Virus record (IMG/VR): IMGVR_UViG_3300028552_000008
DNA length: 64,000 nucleotides
Origin: an uncultured virus (IMG/VR IMGVR_UViG_3300028552_000008)
Taxonomy: Duplodnaviria; Heunggongvirae; Uroviricota; Caudoviricetes
Reading direction: 5' to 3' (one strand)
The notes beneath the pieces are model-generated. The model saw only the letters and a list, made by a program, of their open reading frames with translations. It made no database searches and had not been told where the DNA came from. How positions within the stretch are numbered: position 1 is the stretch's first letter; every line of letters starts with the position of its first letter. Shown in pieces: positions 10,200-63,081 of the stretch. Made by a program: the position numbers and the translations under genes.

Positions 10200-10646
10200 A
10201 TGAAAATAACTAAAAGAGGTAATAGATGGTATGACGAAAATAATAATAGTTGGATAACTGAAGAATCAGCTACTCTATACTCACCTACCCTAACTAATTG
10301 TATATGGTGTAGAGATTGTAGTGATTGTATTAATTGTAGTTATTGTAGTCATTGTATTAGTTGTATTAGTTGTAGTGATTGTAGTTATTGTAGTGGTTGT
10401 AGTAATTGTAGTAGTTGTAATAATTGTAGTCGCTGTATTAATTGTAGTAGTTGTAGTTATTGTGTTGATTGTAATGATTGTAGAGATTGTATTAGTTGTA
10501 GGTATTGTAGAGATTGTAGTTACTGTGAATCAATTTATGATCTGAGTAATAAGATAAGTTTTGCAGCCCAATTTAAGGATAGACAAGAACCAACTATTAG
10601 GGTGGAAATAGATATTAATGATAGAAAACTGGAACCAGATTTGTAG
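10200..10646 (+). CDS. (Cxx)n cysteine-repeat family protein with C-terminal tag
   Basis: RWYDENNNSW head, Cxx repeats, ends DRKLEPDL. Confidence 0.8.
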   Translation: MKITKRGNRWYDENNNSWITEESATLYSPTLTNCIWCRDCSDCINCSYCSHCISCISCSDCSYCSGCSNCSSCNNCSRCINCSSCSYCVDCNDCRDCISCRYCRDCSYCESIYDLSNKISFAAQFKDRQEPTIRVEIDINDRKLEPDL

Positions 10647-10661
10647 TATAGTTCTTTATTT

Positions 10662-11795
10662 ATGAGTGAAAAAATAGTATTTAATTTAAACAAACCCAGC
10701 CCAACTTTTATAGCTAGTGCAGATATTCATTTAGGTAAGAAATTGTATAATTTCCCTGAACTTGAAGAAGATTTACGAGATAATTTTGTGAGACTAGTAG
10801 AATTAGCTATTGAAAAAGATGTACGGTATTTAATTATTGCTGGTGATCTATTTGAGGATAATAATTATACCAAACCACATACTATAGCCTTCATAGCTAA
10901 ATTAGTGGCAAAATTAGCCTTACATGACATTAAACTGATAGGAATTGCAGGAGATCATGATAAGCCCTTAAAAGGTGAAGCCTGGATAAGAATTAGTGAT
11001 ATTCTACCAGTTACTATAGAACCATCTTTTACTGGATTGGACTATTTTGATTACTCTTATGTAACTGTCGATGAATTAGTTACAGCTCTTACAGGAGATA
11101 AAAATCCTGAAAATATTAAGTGGATTTTCCTACATTGTCAATTTCCACAGTTATTCAAGATGGCAGAACCCAAGAAACTAATAGATTTCAATAAACTTGA
11201 GTTATTTAAGAATTTCCCTAATTTACAAGGTATAATAGCTGGAGACATTCATTCCGGTCCTGAAACCAAGGCTTATGGTGTTAATAGAGAGGCTTATGTA
11301 GGTTATACTGGTAGTTTGGGTATAACGGATATAGCTGAGTCTAGAACTGTAAAGTCAGTGTTATATTGTGATGGAAAGAATCTAATTAGACTTCCATTCC
11401 AGCAAAGAAGAGCCTGGAAAGAAATTAATTTTCAAGGAGAGGCAGCTGTAAATTTTGATGTTTCAGCTGAGTTAGAATGGATAAATAAAGAAAAATTTAA
11501 ACCAGTTTTGAAAATAAACTGGGACAATAATAGTGACCCTTATATAAATAAATTAACAGCCTTATATGAAGCGGCATTGGTTAAATTACAACAACATCCA
11601 ATTGGTTCGTTAACAAATGATGAATGTGAAGAAGTACTGACTAGTCGATCAGATATTACTACTGACGTTAAAATTGAAAAAGCTCTACATTCTTGCTGTG
11701 ATGGGGATGAGGATTTATATACCTTATCTTTATCTTTGTTAAATAATGATGTCAAAGACACATTAGACCAATTTAAAGCCAAATATGAATTATGA
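10662..11795 (+). CDS. SbcD/Mre11-like metallophosphoesterase nuclease
   Basis: ADIHLG, AGDLFE, GDHD, GDIH, YTGS motifs; near an SbcC-like gene. Confidence 0.85.
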   Translation: MSEKIVFNLNKPSPTFIASADIHLGKKLYNFPELEEDLRDNFVRLVELAIEKDVRYLIIAGDLFEDNNYTKPHTIAFIAKLVAKLALHDIKLIGIAGDHDKPLKGEAWIRISDILPVTIEPSFTGLDYFDYSYVTVDELVTALTGDKNPENIKWIFLHCQFPQLFKMAEPKKLIDFNKLELFKNFPNLQGIIAGDIHSGPETKAYGVNREAYVGYTGSLGITDIAESRTVKSVLYCDGKNLIRLPFQQRRAWKEINFQGEAAVNFDVSAELEWINKEKFKPVLKINWDNNSDPYINKLTALYEAALVKLQQHPIGSLTNDECEEVLTSRSDITTDVKIEKALHSCCDGDEDLYTLSLSLLNNDVKDTLDQFKAKYEL

Positions 11796-12292
11796 GCAGG
11801 CCGGGTTATTGGAAAACAAAAGATGCTGGTGAAATACCTTATAGTATAATGGAAAATAGCCACGTTAAACATGCATTACGGTACTTACGCAAGACTATAT
11901 TAGCTACAGATACTAAGCCGAATTATAGAGTATATTGTGAAGGTAAGTTAATAGAGTTAGGAGAAGAAGCACAAAGAAGAGGTATAATTACTTCAGAAGA
12001 TATAACTACTGATGCATTAATGGCTCAGATAGAGGTGTGGCAAACTGAATGGGATAGTAGACGAACTGTGATGCCAGTTATACAAAGTTCAATTCATACT
12101 CCATCTAATATTGATTTAAGTAATATATTTAATACAATACCAACTCCTATTAGTATATATAAACCACGCATTTCAGTTATTATAGATGTGGATAAAGAGT
12201 TAAGTAGAGTGACTGGTTTAAGAATATACAACCCTAATAAAGAATATGATGAGGGAATGTTCATTAATAGGAGATTGGATATGGAACTATGA
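11792..12292 (+). CDS. hypothetical protein with C-terminal tag
   Basis: WKTKDAGEIPYSIMENSH N-terminus; ends NRRLDMEL. Confidence 0.7.
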   Translation: MSRPGYWKTKDAGEIPYSIMENSHVKHALRYLRKTILATDTKPNYRVYCEGKLIELGEEAQRRGIITSEDITTDALMAQIEVWQTEWDSRRTVMPVIQSSIHTPSNIDLSNIFNTIPTPISIYKPRISVIIDVDKELSRVTGLRIYNPNKEYDEGMFINRRLDMEL

Positions 12293-12455
12293 ACACAGAT
12301 GATTATGATTTAATAGAACGGATTATTGTAGTAGGTGATCGACTAGTTAATTATATTGATTATCCTCCAGATAAATATGAAGCTAAAGCATTGGAAGATT
12401 GGAAAGAAGCTACTAGAATATTTAGATCAATTATAGAAGAAAATAAAAGAAATCT

Positions 12456-12851
12456 ATGACAATAACAAAAAGAGATAATAGATGGTATGATGAAAACAAT
12501 AATAGTTGGAATACTGAAGAAGCAGCTACTATCTATTCACCTACTCTAACTAATTGTAGTAATTGTAGTGATTGTATAGGTTGTAGTGATTGTACTGATT
12601 GTAGTTATTGTAGAGATTGTAGCTATTGTAATAATTGTAGTGATTGTAGTAGTTGTAGAGATTGTATTTATTGTAGTAGTTGTATTAATTGTAGTAGTTG
12701 TAGAGATTGTAGTAATTGTAGAAGTTGTATTGATTGTAGTAGTTGTAGTAGTTGTAGTTATCATGGTGATTGGATTGATGATAAGAAATATATACCAGAA
12801 GTTAGACCGTTTATAGATTGTAGAGATAGACTATTAGACCCTTATTTATGA
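12456..12851 (+). CDS. (Cxx)n cysteine-repeat family protein with C-terminal tag
   Basis: Family head and repeats; ends DRLLDPYL. Confidence 0.8.
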   Translation: MTITKRDNRWYDENNNSWNTEEAATIYSPTLTNCSNCSDCIGCSDCTDCSYCRDCSYCNNCSDCSSCRDCIYCSSCINCSSCRDCSNCRSCIDCSSCSSCSYHGDWIDDKKYIPEVRPFIDCRDRLLDPYL

Positions 12852-18037: not shown

Positions 18038-18584
18038 AAATTCGAATACTGCTTTAATAGAGGAATTTTGCTATGAATTTGCTAAACAATGTAATTATGT
18101 GCTTACTAAGAGTTTAAAAAGCCAGTTATATAATCCAGTTAGTAAAGCATTGGCTATTAGTAGAGAGTTAGAGGTAGAGCCAAAAGTCTATGTAGCAGCT
18201 CATGTCTATTTCTCTCCTTTATTAAAAGGTTATACTAAACTGACTCCAAATCAGCTGTATACTAGAGATTCCAAGACTTATGTTGAAGAATATCTTAAAT
18301 TTGACAGACATATAGATAGAGAGTTTGAGACTCAATGTAGAATATTGGCTGAATGCCTGGATAATGGCTGGAAAGAAAGATTAGCTTTATTAAATTCTAC
18401 TTTAGACTTTTTACCCTGGTTTAGAGTATTAATATCTACGGAAAGAGATGAAGAAATTATTAGAGTATATAGTGATGTAGCTACTAATATGTTAAGAAAT
18501 GATAAACCTCTGCTAAACTATCTTAAGACAATTAAATCAGATAGTGGTCAGGGATTGGATTTTTCAAGGTTACCTAGATTATGA
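18027..18584 (+). CDS. hypothetical protein in the replication cluster
   Basis: 185-aa ORF coupled between primase and helicase. Confidence 0.7.
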   Translation: MYIENSNTALIEEFCYEFAKQCNYVLTKSLKSQLYNPVSKALAISRELEVEPKVYVAAHVYFSPLLKGYTKLTPNQLYTRDSKTYVEEYLKFDRHIDREFETQCRILAECLDNGWKERLALLNSTLDFLPWFRVLISTERDEEIIRVYSDVATNMLRNDKPLLNYLKTIKSDSGQGLDFSRLPRL

Positions 18585-39205: not shown

Positions 39206-39478
39206 ATGATTGCTGATATTTATGCTTTTTCTAGAGATGGATTTAGACATGATACTTTTCAAAATTTTTTAAACGGTGATTTTCATGGTGTGTTTCAGTT
39301 TGACCGGTCTACTATACCACCATATAATCTGTTTAAAGTATCAATCAATTTAGATGATTATGATATAAGTTGTGGACCTGGTGTTGTATATAATCATACT
39401 GTCTTACATTTTAGAAAGAAAACTATAAACTCCAGACCTGCAGAAAGTGGTGAACGGAGGCTTGAACCTTATTTATGA
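39206..39478 (+). CDS. hypothetical protein with C-terminal tag
   Basis: Ends ERRLEPYL. Confidence 0.7.
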   Translation: MIADIYAFSRDGFRHDTFQNFLNGDFHGVFQFDRSTIPPYNLFKVSINLDDYDISCGPGVVYNHTVLHFRKKTINSRPAESGERRLEPYL

Positions 39479-39744
39479 ATGAATATATAGTAGGAGATGA
39501 AGTTTCTGTAACTCTTAATTCTGGTAATCGAGTTAAAGCAAAGATTATAAGTATTGATAATGACGAGCTTGCACTAAAGTTTGTAGAGTATACAGAGCTT
39601 GTAAACATTGATGCAAGCGGTGGTTCAAGCGGTGGTTCAGGCGGTTGGCCTACTATTCATAGACACATAAATGAGGTAATCTCTTTAGTATCTAAAACTA
39701 GAAAAGAAAATCCTTTTGATAGGAAACTGGAGTTTGATTTATGA
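39475..39744 (+). CDS. KOW/SH3-like small protein with C-terminal tag
   Basis: YIVGDEV start; ends RKENPFDRKLEFDL. Confidence 0.7.
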   Translation: MNEYIVGDEVSVTLNSGNRVKAKIISIDNDELALKFVEYTELVNIDASGGSSGGSGGWPTIHRHINEVISLVSKTRKENPFDRKLEFDL

Positions 39745-40208
39745 AAATAACAAAAATAGCTAATAGATGGTATGACGAAAACAATAATAGTTGGTCTACA
39801 GAAGAACTAGCTACTCTATACTCACCTACCCTAACTAATTGTAGATGGTGTAGAGATTGTAGAGATTGTAATTATTGTTGTCTTTGTAGTGATTGTAGTA
39901 ATTGTAGTAATTGTAGTGGTTGTAGTGGTTGTAGTGGTTGTAGTAATTGTTATAATTGTAATTGGTGTAGTAGTTGTGGTAGTTGTAATAGTTGTTATAA
40001 ATGTACTGATTGTAATGATTGTAGAGGTTGTAGTAATTGTAGTAGTTGTTATAGTTGTAGTTATTGTGGTAATTGTAAAGATTGTTTTCACTGCTATTTA
40101 TGTAAAATTTGTAGTAACCTTAGATTTTATGAAAAAGGATCACAATTAAATACTATTATAAGAGTGGAGGCTAATGCTTTTGACAGAAAATTAGAAATAG
40201 ACTTATGA
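39741..40208 (+). CDS. (Cxx)n cysteine-repeat family protein with C-terminal tag
   Basis: Ends DRKLEIDL. Confidence 0.8.
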   Translation: MKITKIANRWYDENNNSWSTEELATLYSPTLTNCRWCRDCRDCNYCCLCSDCSNCSNCSGCSGCSGCSNCYNCNWCSSCGSCNSCYKCTDCNDCRGCSNCSSCYSCSYCGNCKDCFHCYLCKICSNLRFYEKGSQLNTIIRVEANAFDRKLEIDL

Positions 40209-40515: not shown

Positions 40516-40938
40516 ATGGAACAACTATATAAAAAGACAAAAAAGAACGGTAAGACTAAATATGCTAAGGTAAATTTAAAATACTTGGCTGATAATTTAC
40601 TAGTTGATAGAATGACTCTAAGCCCAGGTCTTTGGCTGGTTAAAGAAGTTCCTAATTGTAAGTCATTAAGTTCAGTTTCTAAAGTATCTAGAATACCGGA
40701 TTACCCCTACGATTTTACTAGTATAATCATGAATCGTGACGAACTGGCCGATTTCCTCGTCAAATTTAACAATGATTATTCTAAAAAACATCCTAGCTCA
40801 GGGAATGGATGGCAAATATTTCCGAGTTATTCCGAACTAGCTGAGGCTATTTTAAATGAATTGATTAGACTGGCTGGCCTAGGATTTGGTGAAAAGCGAG
40901 AAGTACCTGTAACTAGAAAATTAGATTTAGAGTTATAA
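40516..40938 (+). CDS. hypothetical protein with C-terminal tag, similar to 40940..41380
   Basis: LYKK.., GLWLVK; ends TRKLDLEL. Confidence 0.7.
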   Translation: MEQLYKKTKKNGKTKYAKVNLKYLADNLLVDRMTLSPGLWLVKEVPNCKSLSSVSKVSRIPDYPYDFTSIIMNRDELADFLVKFNNDYSKKHPSSGNGWQIFPSYSELAEAILNELIRLAGLGFGEKREVPVTRKLDLEL

Positions 40939-40939
40939 T

Positions 40940-41380
40940 ATGGCAGACCTATACTATAAAGTTGGAAAAAGATATAGAGTAGCTTTATCTGATGTAAGTG
41001 AAGGAGCTATGACAACATTTTTATCAGAAGATGGAATAAGACCTACCTTTCTAACTATAGGAAATTTGGAGGCAGGTATATATTTGGTAAAACCACTACC
41101 TAATACTACTTTAGTGAGCATAATCTCTAAACTAGCTAAATATCCGGATAAACCTGAATTACTGGCTCAAATAAAAGTTACCCAGTCTGAAATGGAATAT
41201 TTTATTGCTGAGTATAGAAGAACTAGGATTACTAGAATAGGAACTGATACATTAAGTAATCAAGAAATAGCCAAGGTTATTTTTGATTATCTTATAGCTA
41301 AATCTGGTATTAAATTTTCGGAGAAGCCGGTTGAAAAAGTTGAACATATAGTAGAACGAAAACTAGAACTGGATTTATAA
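40940..41380 (+). CDS. hypothetical protein with C-terminal tag, similar to 40516..40938
   Basis: LYYKVGKRY, GIYLVK; ends ERKLELDL. Confidence 0.7.
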   Translation: MADLYYKVGKRYRVALSDVSEGAMTTFLSEDGIRPTFLTIGNLEAGIYLVKPLPNTTLVSIISKLAKYPDKPELLAQIKVTQSEMEYFIAEYRRTRITRIGTDTLSNQEIAKVIFDYLIAKSGIKFSEKPVEKVEHIVERKLELDL

Positions 41381-41381: not shown

Positions 41382-41453
41382 GGGGCTATAGTGATAATAG
41401 TAGCACGGAAGTTTTGCAAACTTCAGGACACAGAGCGTAACTGTGTAGTTCCA
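41382..41453 (+). tRNA. tRNA-Ala(TGC)
   Basis: GGGGCTA/TAGTTCC with G3:U70; GAAGT-TTTGCAA-ACTTC. Confidence 0.8.
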
Positions 41454-41457
41454 ATCC

Positions 41458-41531
41458 GGTCTGGAAGCATTAAAGTGATGCAGAGAACTCTTAATTCTCA
41501 GAATAGGGAGCGTTACCCTAGCAGACCACCA
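41458..41531 (+). tRNA. tRNA-Lys(CTT)
   Basis: GAGAA-CTCTTAA-TTCTC; ACCA end. Confidence 0.8.
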
Positions 41532-41807
41532 ATTAAAACGAATGATCAAATTGAACATGTAGAACTTATTACTATACCTCTGCCTATAGTACTAGAAATA
41601 GTAAAGGAGTATATAGAAGCTAAATATAATCTAACTGGTGGAGAAATATTTTTAAGAAAACAAAAAGGACCAACACCTGCTACAGGATATATGAAACTAA
41701 ATGAGCCTGAATTGTATGATTTAAAATATAGAACTGTTGCAACACAAGCTGATATACATAAAGATTTATCAGAATTGCTGGAAAGAAAGTTAGAAATTGA
41801 TTTGTAA
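41532..41807 (+). CDS. hypothetical protein with C-terminal tag (start uncertain)
   Basis: Track ORF 41391 overlaps two tRNAs, so the real start must lie after 41531; ends ERKLEIDL. Confidence 0.55.
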   Translation: MKTNDQIEHVELITIPLPIVLEIVKEYIEAKYNLTGGEIFLRKQKGPTPATGYMKLNEPELYDLKYRTVATQADIHKDLSELLERKLEIDL

Positions 41808-43396: not shown

Positions 43397-43921
43397 ATGA
43401 CAATAACTAAAAGAGACGATAGATGGTATGATGAACGAGGTAATAGTTGGAGAACAGAAGAATCAGCTACTACATACTCACTTACCCTAATTAATTGTAG
43501 AGATTGTAGTAATTGTAATAATTGTATAGGTTGTAGTAGTTGTAGTAGTTGTAGTGGTTGTAATAGTTGTAGTGGTTGTAGTACTTGTTATAATTGTAGT
43601 GGTTGTAGTGCTTGTAATATTTTTAATTATTGTCATGATTGCAGTAGTTGTTTTAATTGTTATAGTTGTACTGATTGTAGTAATTGTAGTGATTGTAATT
43701 ATTGTAGTCGTTGTAGTGATTGTAGTAGTTGCAGTAATTGTATTGATTGTAATATTTGTAGTGATTGTAGTTATTGTAGTAGTTGTAGTAGTTGTACTAA
43801 CTGTAATCATTGTGAATTGTGTGGAAAATTAGTTGATCAAAAGTTTCAAGAAAAGATTAAAGACCCATTAATTAGGACAGAGTTTAATGTAGAAAACAGG
43901 TTACTAGAACCAGACTTATAA
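43397..43921 (+). CDS. (Cxx)n cysteine-repeat family protein with C-terminal tag
   Basis: Ends NRLLEPDL. Confidence 0.8.
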   Translation: MTITKRDDRWYDERGNSWRTEESATTYSLTLINCRDCSNCNNCIGCSSCSSCSGCNSCSGCSTCYNCSGCSACNIFNYCHDCSSCFNCYSCTDCSNCSDCNYCSRCSDCSSCSNCIDCNICSDCSYCSSCSSCTNCNHCELCGKLVDQKFQEKIKDPLIRTEFNVENRLLEPDL

Positions 43922-46602: not shown

Positions 46603-47010
46603 ATGACAATAACTAAAAGAGACGATAGATGGTATGATGAACGAGGTAATAGCTGGGATACTGAAGAAGCAGCTACTTTATACTCACCTACCCTAACCGA
46701 TTGTACTAATTGTTATAATTGTTATAGTTGTACTAATTGTAGTCATTGTAGTAGTAGTTGTATTAATTGTAAAGATTGTAGTAGTTGTAGAGATTGTTAT
46801 AATTGTAGTAATTGTAGTAGTTGTAGAGATTGTTATTATTGTAGTAATTGTATTAATTGTAATAGTTGTAGAAGATGTAGTCGTTGTGATAGCTGTAGTG
46901 ATTGTAGTGAGTGTATTGGTTGTAATGACTGGACTAATAATAAGAAATATGAACCAGTAATTAGACCATTTATAGATTGTAGAGATAGACTATTAGACCC
47001 TTATTTATGA
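46603..47010 (+). CDS. (Cxx)n cysteine-repeat family protein with C-terminal tag
   Basis: Ends DRLLDPYL. Confidence 0.8.
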   Translation: MTITKRDDRWYDERGNSWDTEEAATLYSPTLTDCTNCYNCYSCTNCSHCSSSCINCKDCSSCRDCYNCSNCSSCRDCYYCSNCINCNSCRRCSRCDSCSDCSECIGCNDWTNNKKYEPVIRPFIDCRDRLLDPYL

Positions 47011-50637: not shown

Positions 50638-50949
50638 ATGCCTACAAAAATACAAGATTGTAAAGGTTTATCTGTTTGTATTAATAATCATGTCTTCAAA
50701 TCTAATGAGGTTAGATTAATACCATTTAGTGCTGCTGAAAAAGAATGTAAATGTGTTCTTTATACTGATAGTGACTATGTTATAAAAAGACGAGAGCCAG
50801 TAGATCTAGAATTTCCTGGATTTTTATTAGCTTGTCCAGTCTGTAATGTTATTCAGATAGACGGTTTTAGAAATGCCCCTACTAATTCAACACCAATAAA
50901 AGGTGTTGATAATACAATACCTGAGAGGAGATTAGAAATAGATTTATGA
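50638..50949 (+). CDS. hypothetical zinc-ribbon protein with C-terminal tag
   Basis: CxNNH...CPVC; ends ERRLEIDL. Confidence 0.68.
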   Translation: MPTKIQDCKGLSVCINNHVFKSNEVRLIPFSAAEKECKCVLYTDSDYVIKRREPVDLEFPGFLLACPVCNVIQIDGFRNAPTNSTPIKGVDNTIPERRLEIDL

Positions 50950-51868: not shown

Positions 51869-52321
51869 ATGAAGATAACAAAACGAGAAGATAGATGGTA
51901 TGACGAAAACGGTAATAGTTGGTCTACAGAAGAACTAGCTACTAGATACTCTCCTACTCTAACCAATTGTAGTAATTGTAATAATTGTAATTATTGTAGA
52001 GATTGTAGTTATTGTAGTAGTTGTATTTATTCTAATGGTTGTAGTAGTTGTAGTGAGTGTAATGGTTGTAGGAATTCTCTTAATTGTATTAGTTGTAATT
52101 GGTGTAGTAGTTGTGGTAGTTGTAATAGTTGTATTAGTTGTAGTGTTTGTAGTCTTTGTAGAGATTGTACTTATTGTAGTAATTGTAATAATTGTAGAAA
52201 ATGTGAAAATTGTTATTTCGTTAGTAGTCTTGAAAATTACGCCCCACTTCTTAAATTTGAACCATCTTCAACTAGACCAGAATTAGATATTAATGATAGA
52301 AAACTAGAACCAGACTTATGA
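51869..52321 (+). CDS. (Cxx)n cysteine-repeat family protein with C-terminal tag
   Basis: Ends DRKLEPDL; tail nearly identical to 54587..55042. Confidence 0.8.
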   Translation: MKITKREDRWYDENGNSWSTEELATRYSPTLTNCSNCNNCNYCRDCSYCSSCIYSNGCSSCSECNGCRNSLNCISCNWCSSCGSCNSCISCSVCSLCRDCTYCSNCNNCRKCENCYFVSSLENYAPLLKFEPSSTRPELDINDRKLEPDL

Positions 52322-52692: not shown

Positions 52693-52731
52693 TTGCTAGT
52701 AAATGTAGTTTTATACCTTTAAAATATAAGT

Positions 52732-53013: not shown

Positions 53014-53037
53014 TTTAAGCTTTAATATAATATCAGA

Positions 53038-53829: not shown

Positions 53830-53830
53830 T

Positions 53831-53904: not shown

Positions 53905-53906
53905 TT

Positions 53907-54112: not shown

Positions 54113-54137
54113 TTTAAAACCATAAAACCATAAAACT

Positions 54138-54590
54138 ATGAAACGACCTACAAGAAAAGCAACATTAGAAGATTCAGTAACGTATATTCTAGCAGAGATT
54201 AAAGAATTAGAAGCTTGTCAATATCTGCTTACGCAGATCATTTATAAACTTACTAATGATTATGCACCGGATGATACTCTTTCTGATAGTGTAGCTAAGA
54301 TAACTGAAAGAATAACTCGTAAAAAGTGCAGGCTGTTTGAACAATTAGCCACAATTTCTGTTCTTAGCCCAACTGCTGAAGCTAAGTTAAAACAAAGATT
54401 AATCGATAAATTAAATAAATCTGGTTCATATTTCAGCAATTTTGTTAATCAATCTTGGACTGATATCTCTACCAACCCTGAAGAATTAAAGCAAACTATA
54501 AAAGATCAGATGAGTAAAGCATTACAAGTAAGAGAGGATGAGGTAGATATGATAGCAGTACCTAAAAGGAAGTTAGAACCAGATCTATGA
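54138..54590 (+). CDS. hypothetical helical protein with C-terminal tag
   Basis: Ends KRKLEPDL. Confidence 0.7.
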   Translation: MKRPTRKATLEDSVTYILAEIKELEACQYLLTQIIYKLTNDYAPDDTLSDSVAKITERITRKKCRLFEQLATISVLSPTAEAKLKQRLIDKLNKSGSYFSNFVNQSWTDISTNPEELKQTIKDQMSKALQVREDEVDMIAVPKRKLEPDL

Positions 54591-55042
54591 AGATAACTAA
54601 ACGAGAAAATGATAGATGGTATGACGAAAACAATAATAGTTGGGAAACTAAAAAATTAGCTACTTTACACTCACCTACCCTAACTAATTGTAGTTGGTGT
54701 GGTGGTTGTAGAGATTGTAGAGATTGTAGAGATTGTAGAGATTGTAGAGATTGTAGTAATTGTAGTGATTGTAGTAATTGTAGTTGGTGTGGTGGTTGTA
54801 GTTATTGTATTTGTTGTAATCAGTGTATAAGTTGTAGTTATTGTAGTGGTTGTAGTAATTGTAGTTATTGTAGTCATTGTAATAATTGTAGTGATTGTGG
54901 TTATTGTCATTATTGTAGAAAATGTGAAAATTGTTATCTCGTTAGTAGTCTTGAAAATTACGCCCCACTTCTTAAATTTGAACCATCTTCAACTAGACCA
55001 GAATTAGATATTAATGATAGAAAACTAGAACCAGATCTATGA
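54587..55042 (+). CDS. (Cxx)n cysteine-repeat family protein with C-terminal tag
   Basis: Contains (CRD)5; ends DRKLEPDL. Confidence 0.8.
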   Translation: MKITKRENDRWYDENNNSWETKKLATLHSPTLTNCSWCGGCRDCRDCRDCRDCRDCSNCSDCSNCSWCGGCSYCICCNQCISCSYCSGCSNCSYCSHCNNCSDCGYCHYCRKCENCYLVSSLENYAPLLKFEPSSTRPELDINDRKLEPDL

Positions 55043-55413
55043 AGATAACTAAACGAGAAAATGATAGATGGTATGACGAAAACAATAATAGCTGGGATAG
55101 TGAAGAACTAGCTACTTTCTATTCACCTACCCTAACTACTTGTAGTTATTGTAGTGGTTGTAGTTATTGTAGTAATTGTAGTAGTTGTAGAGATTGTAGT
55201 TATTGTAATCTTTGTAATGATTGTACTCGTTGTACTAATTGTGATTATTGTGATAATTGTAGTCATTGTGGTTATTGTAGTGATTGTAGTGATTGTTTAG
55301 GTTTATATAATTATCGAGATAAAGAAAATTTAGAACCTCAAGTAAGAATATTACCTCCAACATCAAGAATAGAATTAGATATTAATGATAGGAAATTAGA
55401 ACCAGACTTATGA
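55039..55413 (+). CDS. (Cxx)n cysteine-repeat family protein with C-terminal tag
   Basis: Tandem copy; ends DRKLEPDL. Confidence 0.8.
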   Translation: MKITKRENDRWYDENNNSWDSEELATFYSPTLTTCSYCSGCSYCSNCSSCRDCSYCNLCNDCTRCTNCDYCDNCSHCGYCSDCSDCLGLYNYRDKENLEPQVRILPPTSRIELDINDRKLEPDL

Positions 55414-55619
55414 CTATAGATCAAAGAATAACTAGATTGGAGAAGAAGGCTGGAAGGCCAGATTTACCAGGAACTACAATTAGTAGAATACTTTATAAGA
55501 AGAAAGGGTTTGGCTGGACTGTAGGAGTTGGAGCAATGCATTTATCTAGAATATGGTTTCATGCTAAAACTATAGAATCAGCACTATCCAAAGCTGAAAA
55601 ACACTTTAAAATAAAATGA
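55410..55619 (+). CDS. hypothetical protein
   Basis: ATGA-coupled ORF. Confidence 0.55.
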   Translation: MTIDQRITRLEKKAGRPDLPGTTISRILYKKKGFGWTVGVGAMHLSRIWFHAKTIESALSKAEKHFKIK

Positions 55620-56764: not shown

Positions 56765-56939
56765 ACAAATAATGAAACAAGCAGGGTTTACTGAAGAACT
56801 TAAACAAATAGAAGTAGGTAATTGTCCTATCTGTCGTAAACCGATAAATTTAGAAGATTTCAGAAATGCTTTGTCTAAAAGAGAATATGAGATCTCGAAA
56901 ATGTGTAATGCCTGTCAGGACTTAATCTTTGGCCCATGA
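56757..56939 (+). CDS. small zinc-finger protein
   Basis: CPIC...FR..LS.REY.IS.MC..CQD.IF. Confidence 0.65.
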   Translation: MNKQIMKQAGFTEELKQIEVGNCPICRKPINLEDFRNALSKREYEISKMCNACQDLIFGP

Positions 56940-56942
56940 TTT

Positions 56943-57248
56943 ATGTGGATAAAATGGAAATATAATGATCATGGCTGGCCTGATTTTAAAGAACTTGAGA
57001 TCCCTGATGATTTTGATGGTTGTGATTCGATAGAGGATTATCTTTGTGAGCGCGGATATGTTCCAATAGGTATTAAAAGATTTCTGTCGAGTAAGATAAA
57101 GTGGGAGAAGATAGACCTTACTTCTCAAGAAATTAAAGCTAGAAAGATAACTTCATTAAAGAATGAAATCCACTATCATACAATGTGTTTAGCTGACTAT
57201 AAGAAAGAATTAGAGGAATTACTTAGAGATGATGTCAAAACCACTTAA
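56943..57248 (+). CDS. hypothetical protein
   Basis: Packed ORF. Confidence 0.55.
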   Translation: MWIKWKYNDHGWPDFKELEIPDDFDGCDSIEDYLCERGYVPIGIKRFLSSKIKWEKIDLTSQEIKARKITSLKNEIHYHTMCLADYKKELEELLRDDVKTT

Positions 57249-57576
57249 AATGTATATCTTTGTGAGAAAATCGCTACCGTCCCACAAAGTAATTAGTGTA
57301 GCTCATGGTGTATTAATAGCGCATTTAAAATTCAGTCCACTCACACCTTTAGTATATAGTAATGAAAACCAGAGAGTATATAATGAATGGCTTAATACCT
57401 CATTTCGCAAAGTAGTATGTGAAGTGACTGATGCGGAGTTTACGGAGCTAAAGAAGGAATCTGATTATATAACAGTAACAGAATCAGCCTTACCTGGAGA
57501 AGAATTAACACTGGTATTCTGTCCTAGATATGAATGGCCGGTAAAGTTTAAAACTTACCCTTTATTCAATATATGA
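57229..57576 (+). CDS. peptidyl-tRNA hydrolase 2-like protein
   Basis: KMYIFVRKSL, VAHG, W...SFRKVVCEV, ES...LVFCPR. Confidence 0.7.
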   Translation: MMSKPLKMYIFVRKSLPSHKVISVAHGVLIAHLKFSPLTPLVYSNENQRVYNEWLNTSFRKVVCEVTDAEFTELKKESDYITVTESALPGEELTLVFCPRYEWPVKFKTYPLFNI

Positions 57577-57806
57577 TAAAAGTAACTATAATATACGTGG
57601 ATAGCTGGTTACAAGGAAGTCATATGGTAAATTTAACTAAAATGGCTAGGGTTGAAGCCTCATCTATCAAAGCTATAATGGAATCTAAATATAGAGATTC
57701 GATTGTCTATATGTTTGAAGGTTGGCCGCTTATGGTAGGTGAAACGATAGAAGACTTAAACAAATCTGAAATTATAACAATAAACGAAGACAGTACTAAA
57801 ATATAA
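57573..57806 (+). CDS. hypothetical protein
   Basis: ATGA-coupled ORF. Confidence 0.55.
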   Translation: MIKVTIIYVDSWLQGSHMVNLTKMARVEASSIKAIMESKYRDSIVYMFEGWPLMVGETIEDLNKSEIITINEDSTKI

Positions 57807-57817
57807 ATAATTAACTT

Positions 57818-57894
57818 GGGTGAGTAGACCAGTGGAAGGAGTCACATGTCTTAGGAACATGGCAGGGTGGGTTCGAATCCCATCTCACCCACCA
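57818..57894 (+). tRNA. tRNA-Leu(TAG) lacking the long variable arm
   Basis: CATGT-CTTAGGA-ACATG; short variable loop; TTCGAAT; ACCA. Confidence 0.85.
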
Positions 57895-58634: not shown

Positions 58635-58679
58635 TTCTACATAATAGTGATTTAATAATCGAAGACTAGACCCTTTCTT

Positions 58680-59087
58680 ATGACAATAACAAAAATAGCT
58701 AATAGATGGTATGACGAAAACAATAATAGCTGGTTATCAGAAGAAGCAGCTACTCAATACTCACTTACCCTAACTAATTGTAGTAGGTGTAGTGATTGTA
58801 GTAATTGTATTGATTGTAGAGATTGTAGTAATTGGTGTAGTAATTGTAATAATTGTAGAGATTGTAGTTATTGTATATATTGTAGTGATTGTAGTTATTG
58901 TATATATTGTATTGATTGTAATATTTGTAGTGATTGTAGTAGTTGTATTAATTGTAGTAATTGTAGTGATTGTAGAGATTGTAGTAGTTGTATTGATTGT
59001 AGTGATTGTACTAATAATAAGAAGTATGAACCAGTAACTAGACCATTTATAGACTGTACTAACAGACTATTAGAACCAGATTTATGA
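58680..59087 (+). CDS. (Cxx)n cysteine-repeat family protein with C-terminal tag
   Basis: Ends NRLLEPDL; tail identical to 59626..60057. Confidence 0.8.
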   Translation: MTITKIANRWYDENNNSWLSEEAATQYSLTLTNCSRCSDCSNCIDCRDCSNWCSNCNNCRDCSYCIYCSDCSYCIYCIDCNICSDCSSCINCSNCSDCRDCSSCIDCSDCTNNKKYEPVTRPFIDCTNRLLEPDL

Positions 59088-59332
59088 CAAATATCACAGT
59101 ACGAGATAAATATGACCAATCTATAGAAGTAGGAAATAATGTTATAGTAAAGTATTATGGCAGTATTTATAAAGGAACTGTCATTAATATTAAACTAATA
59201 AATAGTACTGGGACTAGTACCAGTGATTTTTGTGCTCATTTAAGAGATTATTGGATTAAAGTTATCATCCATTCACCTATTAGAGGAGATAAAGAGATAA
59301 CTAGTAAATCAGGAGAAATAATAAGAATATGA
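59084..59332 (+). CDS. KOW/SH3-like small protein (untagged)
   Basis: IEVGNNV...YKGTVINI. Confidence 0.6.
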   Translation: MTNITVRDKYDQSIEVGNNVIVKYYGSIYKGTVINIKLINSTGTSTSDFCAHLRDYWIKVIIHSPIRGDKEITSKSGEIIRI

Positions 59333-59601
59333 AATATAATCTAGTTCAAATTCGTAGTCATATAAAGAATCAACTTCGTGTTTCCTTTGAAGAAATTGAA
59401 ATAGAAGGTGAAGTAATAGAAATCAGTTCACCAATGAATACTGGATTTTATTATTGCCTGGCTAAAAGAGGCAAGAAATATGCTTTTGATAGATTAAAGA
59501 AACATTTAATAAAAATGTATGATAAAGAAATTACAAAGATAACAAAAGAGTTAGACATGCTTAAAGCCGTAGAATATCCACATCGAAAAATAAGACATTA
59601 A
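59329..59601 (+). CDS. hypothetical protein; tag sequence follows out of frame
   Basis: GAC ATT AAT GAT AGA AAG TTG GAA CCA GAC TTA TGA (DINDRKLEPDL*) lies in another frame at 59594-59629. Confidence 0.6.
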   Translation: MKYNLVQIRSHIKNQLRVSFEEIEIEGEVIEISSPMNTGFYYCLAKRGKKYAFDRLKKHLIKMYDKEITKITKELDMLKAVEYPHRKIRH

Positions 59602-59625
59602 TGATAGAAAGTTGGAACCAGACTT

Positions 59626-60057
59626 ATGACAATAACAAAAAGAGCTGATAGATGGTATGACGAAAACGGTAATAGTTGGATAACTGAAGAACTAGCTACT
59701 ACTGACTCTCCTACCCTAACTAATTGTTATAATTGTAGAGGTTGTAGTAATTGTAGAGATTGTAGTTATTGTATATATTGTAGTGATTGTAGTAATTGTA
59801 TTAGTTGTATTAGTTGTAGTGATTGTAGTAATTGTAGTAATTGTTATAGTTGTATTGATTGTAGTAATTGTAGTGATTGTTATAGTTGTAGAGATTGTAG
59901 TAGTTGTATTGATTGTAGTAGTTGTAGTGGTTGTAGAGATTGTAGTAATTGTAATAATTGTATTTATTGTAGTGATTGTACTAATAATAAGAAGTATGAA
60001 CCAGTAACTAGACCATTTATAGACTGTACTAACAGACTATTAGAACCAGATTTATGA
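59626..60057 (+). CDS. (Cxx)n cysteine-repeat family protein with C-terminal tag
   Basis: Ends NRLLEPDL. Confidence 0.8.
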   Translation: MTITKRADRWYDENGNSWITEELATTDSPTLTNCYNCRGCSNCRDCSYCIYCSDCSNCISCISCSDCSNCSNCYSCIDCSNCSDCYSCRDCSSCIDCSSCSGCRDCSNCNNCIYCSDCTNNKKYEPVTRPFIDCTNRLLEPDL

Positions 60058-60899
60058 AAGCACATTGGATCATAGAAAATTTTACAGATTCGGAGGATTA
60101 CAGGGATTTAATTAAAGCAGTAAAAGATTTAGGCAAGGAATGCTTTGTAATAGATAAACGTAATCATTTTGATTTTAATCCTGCCTCATTTGTGGAAAAT
60201 GAATGTGTAATAGTTCAAGGGTCAATTCAAATGGTTAAGAATATAGAATCTAGGTTACCTAAAAATTGCTTTCCCATCAAATATTGCACCTTCAACAATT
60301 ATCTTTGCTCGGTTTACTATCCTAAATTAAAAGACTTCCTATTTAATGATAAGTATGTATTACTTCCGCTAAAAGAACTTAAAGAGAATAAGTTTGATTA
60401 TTATCAGAAGTTTGGAAAAGAAGCACTTATATTTGTAAGACCGGATAGTGGAGAAAAGACATTTCAAGCCCAACTCTTAGATTTGCAGGATTTCGACAGA
60501 TTTTGGACTAACTCTATAGCTTCCAGTACTTTAGATGATGATTTAGTACTAGTTTCTACGCCTAAAGATATAATAGGTGAGTGGCGTTTTATATGTTCAA
60601 AGTATAACGATGGGGAAATCATAACTCAATCTACTTATCGATATCAAGGCAAGTTATGTTATATACCTGCTGCACCTGTTAAAGCAACTGAACTTTGTAA
60701 AAATATATTAAAGGTTCAATATTACCCAGACTCTGTTTTTTGCATAGATATCTGCCAGGCTGGGGATAACAAGTTCTATTTATTAGAATTAACCTCCTTT
60801 TCTAGTGCTGGTCTATATGCTACCGATAAAAAGAAGATAGCAACTAGAGTAAGTGAAATAACCGAATTTGAATATGGAAGAGAAATATTCTATAGGTGA
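60054..60899 (+). CDS. ATP-grasp domain protein (DUF4343/R2K-like)
   Basis: FVRPDSGEKTF, EWRF, FCIDI, LELTSFSSAGLY. Confidence 0.75.
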   Translation: MKAHWIIENFTDSEDYRDLIKAVKDLGKECFVIDKRNHFDFNPASFVENECVIVQGSIQMVKNIESRLPKNCFPIKYCTFNNYLCSVYYPKLKDFLFNDKYVLLPLKELKENKFDYYQKFGKEALIFVRPDSGEKTFQAQLLDLQDFDRFWTNSIASSTLDDDLVLVSTPKDIIGEWRFICSKYNDGEIITQSTYRYQGKLCYIPAAPVKATELCKNILKVQYYPDSVFCIDICQAGDNKFYLLELTSFSSAGLYATDKKKIATRVSEITEFEYGREIFYR

Positions 60900-61116
60900 T
60901 CTTGTTGAATTATTAAATTTAGGTGAAGGGGAGATCGTCTCTATAAAAAACACTTATTATCATATGAGAATGTTGAATCATGTATCTATTGGTAAACGTG
61001 ATTTAGATCCGGGAGATATACTTAATGTGTGGCCTGACGAAATAGTAAAAAAGATAGTAATTCTAAGACCTGATTATAGTAACTTAGATGAAAGAAGAAT
61101 TGATATTGAATTATGA
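60868..61116 (+). CDS. KOW/SH3-like small protein with C-terminal tag
   Basis: YSIGDLV; ends ERRIDIEL. Confidence 0.68.
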   Translation: MNMEEKYSIGDLVELLNLGEGEIVSIKNTYYHMRMLNHVSIGKRDLDPGDILNVWPDEIVKKIVILRPDYSNLDERRIDIEL

Positions 61117-61361
61117 ATGATTATAAGGTAGGTGATGTGATTGAGGCTTTTTATGTAGCATCTATTTATTGTACAGGTAAAATAGTAGAATTTAAGTTTA
61201 AGGGAGTTCTCATACGTATACTAGAAGACATGAATTACAATGATATAATATGTTATCCTAGTAATACACAGTTATTTCTCCCATTTGAAAATATCATAGG
61301 GTTTAGTCAACTTATTAGAACAGAAAACATATATGAACGAAACCTTGACCCATATTTATAA
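61113..61361 (+). CDS. KOW/SH3-like small protein with C-terminal tag
   Basis: YKVGDVI; ends ERNLDPYL. Confidence 0.68.
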   Translation: MNDYKVGDVIEAFYVASIYCTGKIVEFKFKGVLIRILEDMNYNDIICYPSNTQLFLPFENIIGFSQLIRTENIYERNLDPYL

Positions 61362-61611
61362 TATAGGTGATGAAGTTAGTGGGAATTATGCACAATTAGC
61401 TGAGTTTAAAGGATTTATAGTATCATATAAATTTTATTTCAATAAACCTTGGTATTATGTACAGCTAACTGAACGCATATTTATACACAAAGAATTACCT
61501 ATAGGTTGGATCATAGCTGTTTCAGAGATGGAAATTAAGGAAGTTAAAAAATTAAGAAAAGAAAACATATATGAGCGAAACCTTGACCCATATTTATAAT
61601 ATAGGTGATGA
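61322..61611 (+). repeat. 52-bp direct repeat (61322-61373 and 61560-61611, one mismatch)
   Basis: AGAAAACATATATGA(A/G)CGAAACCTTGACCCATATTTATAATATAGGTGATGA occurs twice. Confidence 0.85.
61333..61599 (+). CDS. KOW/SH3-like small protein with C-terminal tag
   Basis: YNIGDEV; ends ERNLDPYL. Confidence 0.68.
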   Translation: MNETLTHIYNIGDEVSGNYAQLAEFKGFIVSYKFYFNKPWYYVQLTERIFIHKELPIGWIIAVSEMEIKEVKKLRKENIYERNLDPYL

Positions 61612-61789
61612 GGTGGCATTTTATAGAGGTACTCATAGGTTTGAAGGTAGAATAATAAATAGCGCAGCATTTCATGATCATTGGTGTGTTCAATTATTGA
61701 ACTCTAAATTTATGTCAGTACATAAACAATGTTGTAATAAAATTAGAAAAGAAAATCCTTTAGATAGGAAACTAGAGCTTGATTTATGA
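61571..61789 (+). CDS. KOW/SH3-like small protein with C-terminal tag
   Basis: YNIGDEV; ends DRKLELDL. Confidence 0.68.
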   Translation: MSETLTHIYNIGDEVAFYRGTHRFEGRIINSAAFHDHWCVQLLNSKFMSVHKQCCNKIRKENPLDRKLELDL

Positions 61790-62343
61790 CAATAACTAAA
61801 AGAGATAATAGATGGTTTGACGAAAACAATAATAGCTGGGATAGTGAAGAAGAAGCTACTCTATACTCACCTACCCTAACCGATTGTACTAGTTGTTTTA
61901 ATTGTTATAGTTGTATTGATTGTAGTAGTTGTATTGATTGTAGAGATTGTAGTAGTTGTATTGATTGTAGTAATTGTAGAGATTGTACTAGTTGTGATAG
62001 TTGTAGTGGTTGCATTGATTGTAGTGGTTGTGTTGATTGTAGAGATTGTAGTGGTTGTAGTGGTTGTATTTATTGTATATATTGTAGTGATTGTAGTGAG
62101 TGTTATGGATGTAGAGATTGTAGTAATTGTAGTAATTGTTATAGTTGTATTGATTGTAGTAATTGTAGTGATTGTAGAGATTGTAATAATTGTAGAGATT
62201 GTAGTAGTTGTATTGATTGTAGAGATTGTAGTTATTGTAGTAGTTGTATTGGTTGTAATGACTGGACTAATAACATGAAATATGAACCGGTAATTAGACC
62301 ATTTATAGACTGTACTAACAGACTATTAGAACCAGACTTATGA
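61786..62343 (+). CDS. (Cxx)n cysteine-repeat family protein with C-terminal tag (longest copy)
   Basis: 185 aa; ends NRLLEPDL. Confidence 0.8.
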   Translation: MTITKRDNRWFDENNNSWDSEEEATLYSPTLTDCTSCFNCYSCIDCSSCIDCRDCSSCIDCSNCRDCTSCDSCSGCIDCSGCVDCRDCSGCSGCIYCIYCSDCSECYGCRDCSNCSNCYSCIDCSNCSDCRDCNNCRDCSSCIDCRDCSYCSSCIGCNDWTNNMKYEPVIRPFIDCTNRLLEPDL

Positions 62344-62582
62344 CACAAAAGGAATATAAAGTAGGAGATGTGGTTGATTTTGAGGTTAGTAATTTGAAAG
62401 GAATAGGAACTATAACACCATATAATGGAGACATAATGTATGCTGTAATTATAGAGGAATTTCCCGGTATACCTAGTAGAACTAAATGGCATATATTTCC
62501 TGATGAAATAACAGGTATACATGTTGAACCTAGAATAGAATTTGACATCACAAAAGATAGAAGATTAGAGTTAGAACTATGA
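62340..62582 (+). CDS. KOW/SH3-like small protein with C-terminal tag
   Basis: YKVGDVV; ends DRRLELEL. Confidence 0.68.
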   Translation: MTQKEYKVGDVVDFEVSNLKGIGTITPYNGDIMYAVIIEEFPGIPSRTKWHIFPDEITGIHVEPRIEFDITKDRRLELEL

Positions 62583-62833
62583 ATGAATTTGAAGAAGGAA
62601 TGAAAGTTATAGTTACTTTTTATAGCGGTAATAAAGCTGTAGGAATAATAATATGGTATGCTGATGATACTTCCTATGAAGTTGAAGTCTTGCATTATAC
62701 AGAAATTAATGATAAAGAGAAAACGGTGGAGACATTTCCAAATCCTTATAGTAACATTAACTTCATAAATACCGAAGCAATACCAAGTAGAACAGAGAAT
62801 CCTTTTGATAGAAAATTGGAACCAGATCTATGA
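62579..62833 (+). CDS. KOW/SH3-like small protein with C-terminal tag
   Basis: FEEGMKV; ends DRKLEPDL. Confidence 0.68.
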   Translation: MNEFEEGMKVIVTFYSGNKAVGIIIWYADDTSYEVEVLHYTEINDKEKTVETFPNPYSNINFINTEAIPSRTENPFDRKLEPDL

Positions 62834-63081
62834 GTGAATATAAAGTAGGAGATGTTGTAGTTTATTGGTCTATTAGTTCTAACTCAGAGGCAGTTGCTAA
62901 GATAGTCGAAACCGATTGGACTAGTTTTAATTATTTAAGGGTAATTATAATAAAACATGATCATCTTAGTGCAGGTACATCAATTTATTTAACAGAGAGT
63001 GAAATAATAAGATTGGACGGTCCCATTATAAAACACTGTTTTGATATTATGTTAGATAGAAGATTAGATTTGGAACTATAA
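62830..63081 (+). CDS. KOW/SH3-like small protein with C-terminal tag
   Basis: YKVGDVV; ends DRRLDLEL. Confidence 0.68.
   Translation: MSEYKVGDVVVYWSISSNSEAVAKIVETDWTSFNYLRVIIIKHDHLSAGTSIYLTESEIIRLDGPIIKHCFDIMLDRRLDLEL

Follow-up and report, generated by a model that had tools for sequence, protein, structure and literature searches.

A C-terminal heptapeptide shared by unrelated small proteins of an uncultured jumbo phage: a putative docking peptide linked to an AAA+/DUF3150/WGR module

Results

A heptapeptide ends unrelated proteins of the phage

We analyzed a 64,000-nucleotide stretch of DNA (the window) from an uncultured tailed virus (Caudoviricetes; IMG/VR record IMGVR_UViG_3300028552_000008), in which proteins with unrelated bodies ended in the same heptapeptide, R-x-[LI]-[DE]-x-[DEY]-L, directly before the stop codon. 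This heptapeptide is referred to as the tag, and the proteins that carry it as bearers (Table 1). Coordinates are window positions unless another record is named, and the window corresponded to positions 15219-79218 of an 85,671-bp virus record, G000. The G+C content of G000 was ~33%, and its + strand held almost every gene. G000 was identified as a fragment of a jumbo phage, as a metagenome contig of 218,290 bp encoded an ATP-grasp protein 100% identical to its own. Another virus record, G001 (127,352 bp; 58% complete by CheckV), had almost solely the Cys-repeat protein family described below in common with G000; it contained genes for a tail sheath, a baseplate protein, a head protease, a sigma-like factor, and an intein-containing multisubunit RNA polymerase. 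We infer that G000 and G001 are probably complementary pieces of one ~218-kb genome type. A search of the phage reference collection yielded no close relative; the DNA at 39000-63100 was unmatched, and the polymerase gave weak matches only.

In the whole of G000, the motif was present 31 times in the + frames and 0 times on the minus strand. All but one of these occurrences (30/31) were directly before a stop codon, and the sole non-terminal match was inside a frame outside the called genes. Twenty-nine of the 30 terminal motifs ended open reading frames (ORFs) of at least 40 amino acids (aa), and 3 of those 29 were beyond the end of the window. Among the called G000 proteins, 29 of 155 were tagged, compared to a mean of 0.004 and a maximum of 1 in 2000 residue shuffles, and no internal match was found among 25,605 positions. 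Similar results were obtained with G001, in which the motif was terminal in 15 of 15 cases on the gene strand and two near-variants ended in NL and FL, and with the related contigs, in which every match was terminal (L002, 16/16; L003 and L007, 14/14; L004, 5/5; L008, 13/13). Roughly 1 protein in 6 was tagged in G000. When the F and N variants were counted, G000 had 30 bearers among 155 proteins and G001 had 17 among 186, and the genome type thus held about 47 bearers.

A preliminary description of the window had listed 26 ORFs with this ending. All 26 had R.[LI][DE].[DEY]L immediately ahead of the stop codon, and their division into 11 Cys-repeat proteins, 8 small beta-rich (SH3-like) proteins, and 7 proteins with other bodies agreed with the sequences. 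The ORF that had been listed as starting at ~41532 spanned 41391-41807 when it was read from its first GTG. The enrichment at C termini that the description predicted was confirmed by our scan of the genome, the relatives, the shuffles, and the internal positions, and its statement that the core replication enzymes lack the strict tag held.

The tag has a defined shape and is predicted to lie outside the folded bodies

To describe the tag by position and by codon, we used 68 distinct 3' ends from the G000 phage and its close relatives; these ends are kin by descent, and tests based on them are rough. The core had R at position -6, L at -4, D or E at -3, P, L, or I at -2, D, E, or Y at -1, and L at position 0. 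Hydrophobic residues alternated along it, with Leu at position 0 in 68/68 ends, P, L, I, M, or F at -2 in 67/68, and L or I at -4 in 68/68. Position -5 was R in 25 ends, K in 21, L in 13, N in 8, G in 1, and Q in 0. At position -1, an acidic residue (D or E) was found in 53 ends, Y in 10, and F in 5. The core often followed another unit of similar form (R-x-E-hydrophobic-[DN]-hydrophobic-x-[DNE]), in agreement with the upstream extension noted previously, and linkers rich in P, S, K, and E preceded the tail units.

In an AlphaFold2 (AF2) model of the protein encoded at 62579..62833, residues 68-84, which include the tail, were outside the four predicted strands; this was a weak model, with a predicted local distance difference test (pLDDT) score of 62.6. 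In the AF2 model of the DUF3150 protein described below, the last 5 residues had pLDDT values of <50 and the tail was outside the folded part; confidence in the two models was low to middling. The tag would be presented at the end of a flexible linker and read there by one partner. As an extended strand, it would place Leu 0, the hydrophobic residue at -2, Leu -4, and Arg -6 on one face, which may enter a groove together with the free carboxylate, while the acidic residues at -1 and -3 would be on the opposite face.

Tagged bodies are diverse and are exchanged as cassettes

When the last 16 residues of the 29 tagged proteins were removed, blastp grouped the remaining bodies into 13 clusters, which comprised 13 Cys-repeat proteins, several small groups, and singletons. 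No tagged body matched a family above threshold in Pfam, NCBIfam, or PHROGs. In the SH3-like family, the bodies were 17-38% identical to the first sequence, and R78 and L84 were invariant. In the case of the 166-aa protein at 11792, a search for relatives yielded near-identical copies only.

Members of the Cys-repeat family had an N-terminal W.D..GN.W...E.A module followed by Cys at every third residue, (C-x-x)n, for 20-40 turns. The family had 2711 representatives at E <= 0.001, some of up to 1426 aa, and no match in Pfam or NCBIfam; it is a large and previously undescribed family. Among the best 150 of the 2711 relatives, 4 were tagged and 15 matched a different C-terminal domain, indicating that the tag occupies the place of another C-terminal module in the G000 lineage.

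The tagged arrays differed between close relatives. The sister phage G003 (a 41-kb record) was 96-98% identical to G000 over most of the region, and the segment at 58653-62018 (3.4 kb, containing two Cys-repeat genes, the ATP-grasp gene, and four small tagged genes) was replaced in G003 by ~1.4 kb with five other small tagged genes (L002, 7713-9200). The arrays therefore swap cassettes while each cassette retains the tail.

Two side observations were made in the arrays. A terminator-like, G+C-rich strong hairpin with a T-run was located at 10146-10195, directly before the first tagged gene. In addition, the ORF at 59329-59601 had a TAA nine codons before an intact tail (IEK*DINDRKLEPDL*), and the same state was found in L001 and L009; this ORF is either a tagged gene with a freshly lost tail or a case of read-through.

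Table 1. Tagged genes, tail-bearing module genes, and associated genes of the window
Feature	Positions	Strand	C-terminal tail	Remarks
First AAA+ ATPase, N-terminal part (Cdc48-like AAA+)	5131..6051	+		ORF ends within Walker A motif
First AAA+ ATPase, ATPase part	6343..7113	+	DRALDPFN	Flexible C-terminal extension
DUF3150 protein	7571..8557	+	RRLDFDEL	Two genes downstream of AAA+ gene
DUF1257 and DUF2997 genes	8942..9921	+	None	126-aa ORF between them; candidate partners only
Cys-repeat protein	10200..10646	+	RVEIDINDRKLEPDL	Stop TAG
166-aa protein	11792..12292	+	RRLDMEL	No known family; between SbcD and SbcC
Cys-repeat protein	12456..12851	+	RPFIDCRDRLLDPYL	
90-aa protein	39206..39478	+	RRLEPYL	
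Small beta-rich (SH3-like) protein	39475..39744	+	RKENPFDRKLEFDL	
Cys-repeat protein	39741..40208	+	RKLEIDL	
140-aa protein	40516..40938	+	RKLDLEL	Paralogue of gene 40940..41380; stop TAA
146-aa protein	40940..41380	+	RKLELDL	Stop TAA
138-aa protein	41391..41807	+	RKLEIDL	Stop TAA, then tRNA genes; no overlapping gene
Cys-repeat protein	43397..43921	+	RLLEPDL	
Cys-repeat protein	46603..47010	+	RLLDPYL	
103-aa protein	50638..50949	+	RRLEIDL	
Cys-repeat protein	51869..52321	+	RPELDINDRKLEPDL	
150-aa protein	54138..54590	+	RKLEPDL	No known family
Cys-repeat protein	54587..55042	+	RKLEPDL	
Cys-repeat protein	55039..55413	+	RKLEPDL	
Cys-repeat protein	58680..59087	+	RLLEPDL	Inside cassette replaced in sister phage G003
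Remnant tail	59597..59629	+	DINDRKLEPDL	Separated by TAA from ORF 59329-59601
Cys-repeat protein	59626..60057	+	RLLEPDL	
R2K-type ATP-grasp ligase	60054..60899	+		Within tagged array; absent at syntenic place in G003
Small beta-rich protein	60868..61116	+	RRIDIEL	
Small beta-rich protein	61113..61361	+	RNLDPYL	
Small beta-rich protein	61333..61599	+	RNLDPYL	
Small beta-rich protein	61571..61789	+	RKLELDL	
Cys-repeat protein	61786..62343	+	RLLEPDL	
Small beta-rich protein	62340..62582	+	RRLELEL	
Small beta-rich protein	62579..62833	+	RKLEPDL	
Small beta-rich protein	62830..63081	+	RRLDLEL	Stop TAA, then 133-nucleotide gap

Selection acts on the peptide

A recurring sequence at the ends of genes could also be a nucleic-acid element, such as a ribosome-binding or coupling signal or a recombination junction, with the peptide as a by-product. 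The stop codon was TGA in 53 of the 68 distinct ends, and most tags ended in NTA TGA over the ATG of the next gene. The codon of the last Leu was the sole skewed codon position, with a bias towards NTA (p = 2e-6). This skew fits the ATGA overlap of stop and start codons, which was used genome-wide, including at untagged genes. The other synonymous sites were free and followed genome-wide usage. Specifically, the Arg-6 codons (n = 68) were AGA in 47 ends, AGG in 11, CGA in 7, CGT in 2, and CGG in 1 (p = 0.056 versus genome-wide synonymous usage), and the Leu-4 codons were TTA in 27, CTA in 15, TTG in 13, CTT in 7, and CTG in 4 (p = 0.50).

No Shine-Dalgarno signal was found in G000: 96 of the 115 genes without a preceding tag had no such word upstream. 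Furthermore, the terminal Leu was kept before all three stop codons, as stated previously, and 8 of the 30 tags were followed by TAA or TAG; at these, the spacing to the next gene was varied, or there was no next gene. The ordinary synonymous usage, the lack of a Shine-Dalgarno signal, and the TAA and TAG ends with varied spacing indicated that selection acts on the peptide. Thus, the earlier reading of the synonymous codon variation was borne out, and the nucleic-acid explanation is close to refuted.

Conserved proteins of an AAA+ module carry related tails

Variant tails were also found on an AAA+ ATPase, on the DUF3150 protein two genes downstream of it, and on a 132-aa WGR-domain protein encoded beyond the window end. 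The tails in G000 were RALDPFN (AAA+), RRLDFDEL (DUF3150), and RRLDFGDL (WGR), compared to R.L[DE].[DEY]L for the other bearers.

The ATPase domain of the first AAA+ protein matched Pfam AAA (1.3e-30) and AAA_lid_3 (2.9e-9), as in the classical AAA clade with its lid, and a profile search against the PDB identified the Cdc48/p97 D2 domain (E = 3e-61). A single ATPase domain was recognized; the first ~245 residues were unmatched, and the NCBIfam scores were far below the family cut-offs. In an atlas look-up, the N-terminal part was placed among AAA-family clusters and nothing more specific. The tail was on a flexible extension of about 25-30 residues.

The gene itself was split in the Walker A motif: the ORF at 5131-6051 ended in PKGVLLAGELN*, and the ORF at 6343-7113 resumed with IPGTGKT. 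The relatives of this protein were single ORFs of 531-563 aa, and the insert of ~290 nucleotides matched no Rfam family at E <= 1; it may be an unrecognized intron, or the gene may be broken. A second classical AAA+ ATPase (326 aa; L015, 2013-2990, equivalent to window coordinates 65894-66874, past the window end) was encoded between two tagged genes, and its gene overlapped the stop codon of the tagged gene ahead of it.

With the DUF3150 protein as the query, 54 proteins of 36-100% identity were identified, many of them on contigs of 200-237 kb. Nearly all 54 ended in TG[EG]Y.RRLD, followed by 0-2 further residues after one variable position and then by [DE]L. The strict tag was found on 10 of the 54 (for example, RRLDTDL and RRLDLEL), and more distant members ended in RRIEV, RKIDL, or RAIKL. 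The DUF3150 protein, named previously as a possible receptor, thus belongs among the bearers. A Foldseek search of the PDB with the DUF3150 model had no match at E <= 0.001, and a wide VIA-align search with residues 199-323 yielded generic four-helix bundles with Z values of <=11.9, which is in the common range for helical models. Single-protein scans of viral contigs with the second AAA+ protein and with DUF3150 recovered identical copies only, and an alignment-based scan reached the relatives described next.

Three relatives were compared with G000: G006 (134,588 bp; G+C, 42%; DUF3150 identity, 63%), G007 (182,660 bp; 53%; 42%), and G008 (41,956 bp; 35%; 36%). In G006, the AAA+ tail was RRLDEKFS and the DUF3150 tail was RRLDTEGI, a WGR protein was not seen, and 9 of 208 proteins ended in R.[LIM][DE].[DEHQNT]L, mostly ERRLDT[DHQ]L. 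The bodies of these nine small bearers had no blastp match in G000 or G001. In G007, the tails were LRSIAI (AAA+), RRIEV (DUF3150), RRISL (WGR), and RRIEL (a Top1-type zinc-ribbon protein). In G008, 6 of 57 proteins were bearers, with the tails VRKIKA (AAA+), FRAIKL (DUF3150), RRKIKL (WGR), and RAIKI, RAIKI, and RAIRL (three others). The AAA+ homologues in L034 and G009 had the tail RELDIS. The WGR assignment was above the Pfam gathering score in G007 (29.7 bits) and below it in G000 and G008, and the G000 and G007 proteins matched each other by blastp (E = 1e-9). The operon order AAA+/DUF3150/DUF1257/DUF2997 was kept in G008 and partly kept in G007.

Each lineage pattern was found at protein ends solely in its own lineage or nearest kin and was almost never internal. 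The tail codons within each of G006, G007, and G008 differed synonymously, indicating that the likeness of the tails within a lineage did not come from recent DNA copying. As far as we have seen, the link of the tag to the AAA+/DUF3150/WGR module is new.

Extreme C-terminal docking tails are known for this class of AAA+ proteins, as in the proteasomal ATPases with their HbYX tails and in ESCRT-III proteins, whose tails dock on Vps4. In the HbYX motif, the penultimate residue of the protein is a Tyr that is preceded by a hydrophobic residue. The tails described here did not have this form: position -1 was mostly D or E, and the AAA+ tails ended in PFN, KFS, DIS, IAI, or IKA.

Other features of the region

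Recognized genes in and around the window included those for the large terminase subunit and, adjoining the DUF3150, DUF1257, and DUF2997 genes, the classical AAA+ ATPase. Genes for DNA metabolism encoded SbcCD, a helicase, a primase, an intein-bearing DnaB-like helicase, RecA, a resolvase, ligases, and, according to Pfam, a family A polymerase with a UDG-like domain. A JAB/small ORF/ThiF cassette, a radical SAM protein, and the R2K ATP-grasp ligase were also recognized. Thirteen tRNA genes were dispersed through the tagged arrays (39122-57894). Inteins with LAGLIDADG or homing-endonuclease domains were located in the DnaB-like helicase (18581-20992), and inteins were also found in G001 (L018 and L019), in the RNA polymerase beta/beta' protein, an SNF2 helicase, and the head protease. 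Counts of 9-mers over 104 intergenic regions of G000 and G001 revealed no clear shared promoter or timing motif.

Discussion

The results suggested that the tag is a short linear motif, a portable peptide for docking by the C terminus, and that one co-evolving partner, probably phage-encoded, reads it end-on; we put the probability of this reading at about 0.6. Tail sequence, length, and charge differed between lineages and matched within each, which is most simply explained by a single receptor co-evolving with its peptide ligand. The bearers that are conserved were in one phage module or operon, which makes a phage-encoded receptor most likely. The tail would be ancestral to the AAA+/DUF3150/WGR module, and it would later have been attached to dozens of fast-turnover small accessory proteins in two lineages, those of the G000 phage and G006. 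A common docking or sorting signal had been proposed in the preliminary description. This central proposal, a peptide-level signal rather than a DNA junction element, was supported. For one of the jobs proposed there, recruitment to the AAA+ machine, the support was indirect: the AAA+, DUF3150, and WGR proteins bear variant tails that change in step with the tags.

Several points weigh against this reading. No receptor for the tail was found, and the docking role is putative. Four tail forms were available, a number too small to support formal testing of co-variation. The last residue of the AAA+ tails is N, S, I, or A rather than L, and these tails may therefore use a different pocket. G007, which is ~83% complete, has only 4 bearers, indicating that the large expansion does not come with the module as such. 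ThiF and JAB genes are also kept in these lineages, and gene presence or absence thus fails to distinguish the AAA+ module from them. For G006, G007, and G008, the patterns were defined on the data in which they were counted, which makes their enrichment optimistic, and the gene calls were simple greedy ORF picks. Finally, all of the records are fragments, among them G000 and G001 (58% by CheckV), and the partner may be encoded outside the sequence covered.

Two further searches were aimed at the partner. Co-folding of the N-terminal part of the first AAA+ protein, the second AAA+ protein, and the ATP-grasp ligase with an SH3-like tagged protein gave a score of 0.01 against a mark of 0.32, for a run of four chains, three of them without alignments, that was outside the calibration of the tool; such a score carries no weight for or against binding. 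PDB sequence searches for a hidden clamp or hub among conserved unknown proteins (32224-33213, 26236-26970, and 37521-38174) yielded nothing meaningful.

If the partner were a host protein, the tails would dock on one host hub (for example, RNA polymerase, the sliding clamp, or the ATPase of a protease) to reach it or to block it. Small proteins from variable regions of phage genomes often target the host, and the alternation x-L-x-hydrophobic-x-L-COOH resembles both clamp-binding hexapeptides and class II PDZ ligands. The beta-clamp-binding motif (QL[SD]LF or QLxLxL) has Gln at its first position. At the equivalent position of the tag, -5, the residue was R, K, L, N, or G, and Q was found in 0/68 ends; moreover, no clamp family was detected by Pfam in G000 or G001, although phage clamps can diverge beyond detection. 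The loose likeness to the beta-clamp motif that had been pointed out earlier was therefore not upheld. The class II PDZ ligand pattern (hydrophobic-x-hydrophobic-COOH), with hydrophobic residues at 0 and -2 and a free carboxylate, did fit the tag; no PDZ family was found by Pfam in the phage proteins scanned (G000 and G001), and host PDZ proteases are periplasmic. In addition, the tail shifts strongly among related phages (from RRLDFDEL to RRIEV to RAIKL), even with charge reversal, and conserved phage proteins of the same operon bear it in every lineage, for which a partner within the phage is the simpler explanation. Thus, it seemed decidedly unlikely that the tails are ligands of a host hub. 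The host clamp in particular was considered and judged unlikely, given the absence of Q at -5 and the divergence of the tail between related phages.

The tail could instead address proteins to the virion, that is, load them into the prohead for delivery with the DNA. The genome type is that of a large myovirus with a head maturation protease, and one short terminal peptide is found on many small unrelated proteins in variable arrays, and sister phages swap cassettes. The T-even internal-protein loci show such a pattern of small unrelated proteins, variable loci, and a shared terminal peptide; the capsid targeting sequence of the T4 internal proteins is N-terminal and is removed by the head protease, and encapsulins use cargo-loading peptides. 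In these systems, as here, unrelated small proteins (of variable loci in the case of T4) share a short terminal address. The DNA-binding bearers, with WGR and Top1-type zinc-ribbon domains, would also be plausible as co-injected proteins. However, the T4 signal is N-terminal and cleaved, whereas the tag was C-terminal in all cases and had an AAA+ ATPase among its bearers, and an AAA+ hexamer would be an unusual capsid cargo. Furthermore, the tagged genes shared their strand and region with genes for replication, tRNAs, and nucleotide metabolism, away from recognizable structural genes, and no protein of at least 300 aa in G001, the structural gene fragment, had a tail. A virion address label is therefore unlikely.

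The strictly terminal position of the tail would also suit a C-terminal degron, by which bearers would undergo timed unfolding or destruction by the phage Cdc48-like ATPase or a host protease. AAA+ unfoldases of the classical clade, ClpX, and FtsH engage free C-terminal tails, and the phage has two classical AAA+ genes, one of which is flanked by tagged genes. For a destruction signal, however, it would be odd that the ATPase and its conserved neighbors bear the tail themselves, and the head protease was the sole peptidase candidate found by Pfam and PHROGs as a partner. We consider the chance of a degron to be slim.

A free C terminus would likewise be needed if the tail carboxylate were a substrate, either for adenylation and conjugation by a ThiF-type E1 (with a JAB peptidase) or for extension by the R2K ATP-grasp ligase. 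The cassette at 30396-32116, of the ubiquitin-like conjugation type, comprised a 132-aa ORF, the JAB peptidase, a 93-aa ORF ending in EIRGLVKSDKSK, and a ThiF-type E1 with a weak likeness to the ThiF of PRTRC systems. ThiF was conserved in G007 and G008 and JAB in G008, a distribution compatible with a role for the cassette, and the ATP-grasp gene was within a tagged array; ligases of the RimK, LysX, and TTL types act on acidic C-terminal tails. Against this, G003 swaps the ATP-grasp segment for five other tagged genes and has no match to the ATP-grasp protein in its 41 kb, and in a 175-kb relative that encodes an ATP-grasp homologue of 46% identity, the 17 kb examined contained no tagged gene. 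The final residue of the tails also varied (L, I, V, A, N, or S), whereas, to our knowledge, E1 substrates keep an invariant small last residue, and docking fits such a variable end better than carboxylate chemistry does. Modification of the carboxylate is therefore very improbable. As a necessary partner of the tag, the R2K ATP-grasp ligase is unlikely in view of its absence from the 41 kb of G003, in which tagged genes are present.

The docking peptide can be compared with several known systems. SspB docks on the N-domain of ClpX through its C-terminal XB peptide, and ESCRT-III proteins use their MIM tails to dock on the MIT domain of Vps4. In those systems, a short C-terminal peptide after a flexible linker docks several proteins on one AAA+ machine, and the conserved bearers described here are likewise in an AAA+ operon, with docking putative. 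The phage system differs in that there are ~47 bearers per genome type, the ATPase itself is tailed, and the sequence is unrelated; in addition, a MIM-like helix is unlikely in view of how often position -2 is Pro. T7 gp2.5 and gp4 have acidic C-terminal tails, and T4 gp43, gp33, and gp55 have clamp-binding tails; in these systems, several phage proteins with alike tails dock on a single replication protein. The tag is similar to these in being an acidic tail with a hydrophobic end, and DNA-binding bearers were found in the replication region of a phage with a family A polymerase, as in T7. It differs in that the recognizable replication enzymes are untailed, no clamp was found by Pfam, and there are far more bearers, most of them without a link to DNA.

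A third comparison is with p97, for which two published reports describe a C-terminal tail that, like the PIM motifs in other proteins, is read by PUB domains (PMC6995525, PMC4017264). Like p97, the Cdc48-like phage ATPase has a flexible C-terminal tail (with docking putative in the phage) whose motif is shared by other proteins. Here, the motif is different, the setting is a phage, and dozens of small proteins have acquired the motif; Pfam detected neither a PUB nor a PUL domain in G000 or G001. In the literature searched, we found no description of the tag or of the function of DUF3150. Such tails were also not mentioned in the portions consulted of the R2K ATP-grasp paper (PMC4431377) and of a jumbo-phage overview.

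The small proteins may act as adaptors, substrates, or competitors. If the docking reading is accepted, there is about one chance in three that they are clients or adaptors that are brought to a Cdc48-like unfoldase platform, much as with the SspB tail on ClpX or the PUB domain that the p97 tail and PIM motifs have in common. The variable bodies would deliver different targets or would themselves be handed over. A wider and more doubtful proposal is that the tails are the private addressing code of a clade of jumbo phages of about 180-240 kb. The code would consist of tails of 5-8 residues and a phage receptor in the Cdc48-like AAA+/DUF3150/WGR machine, the code and the receptor would drift together, and in some lineages dozens of hypervariable binder modules (Cys-repeat arrays and SH3-like domains) would have received the code and, as a large and exchangeable adaptor set, would deliver targets from the host or from rival phages to the viral unfoldase.

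Terminal peptides that join many proteins to one partner are known in a few well-studied cases, namely, the clamp-binding tails, SspB, T4 capsid targeting, and encapsulins. The tail described here can be traced to an AAA+ module that is conserved, and its bearers change together from lineage to lineage. It would allow ~47 orphan proteins of one phage to be grouped in one functional set, and it offers a route to their receptor by peptide pull-down or co-variation. The naturally matched pairs of tail and receptor may also serve as orthogonal docking parts. If the small proteins are adaptors, they would be a functional parallel, in a bacterial virus, to the F-box or PRANC adaptor families.

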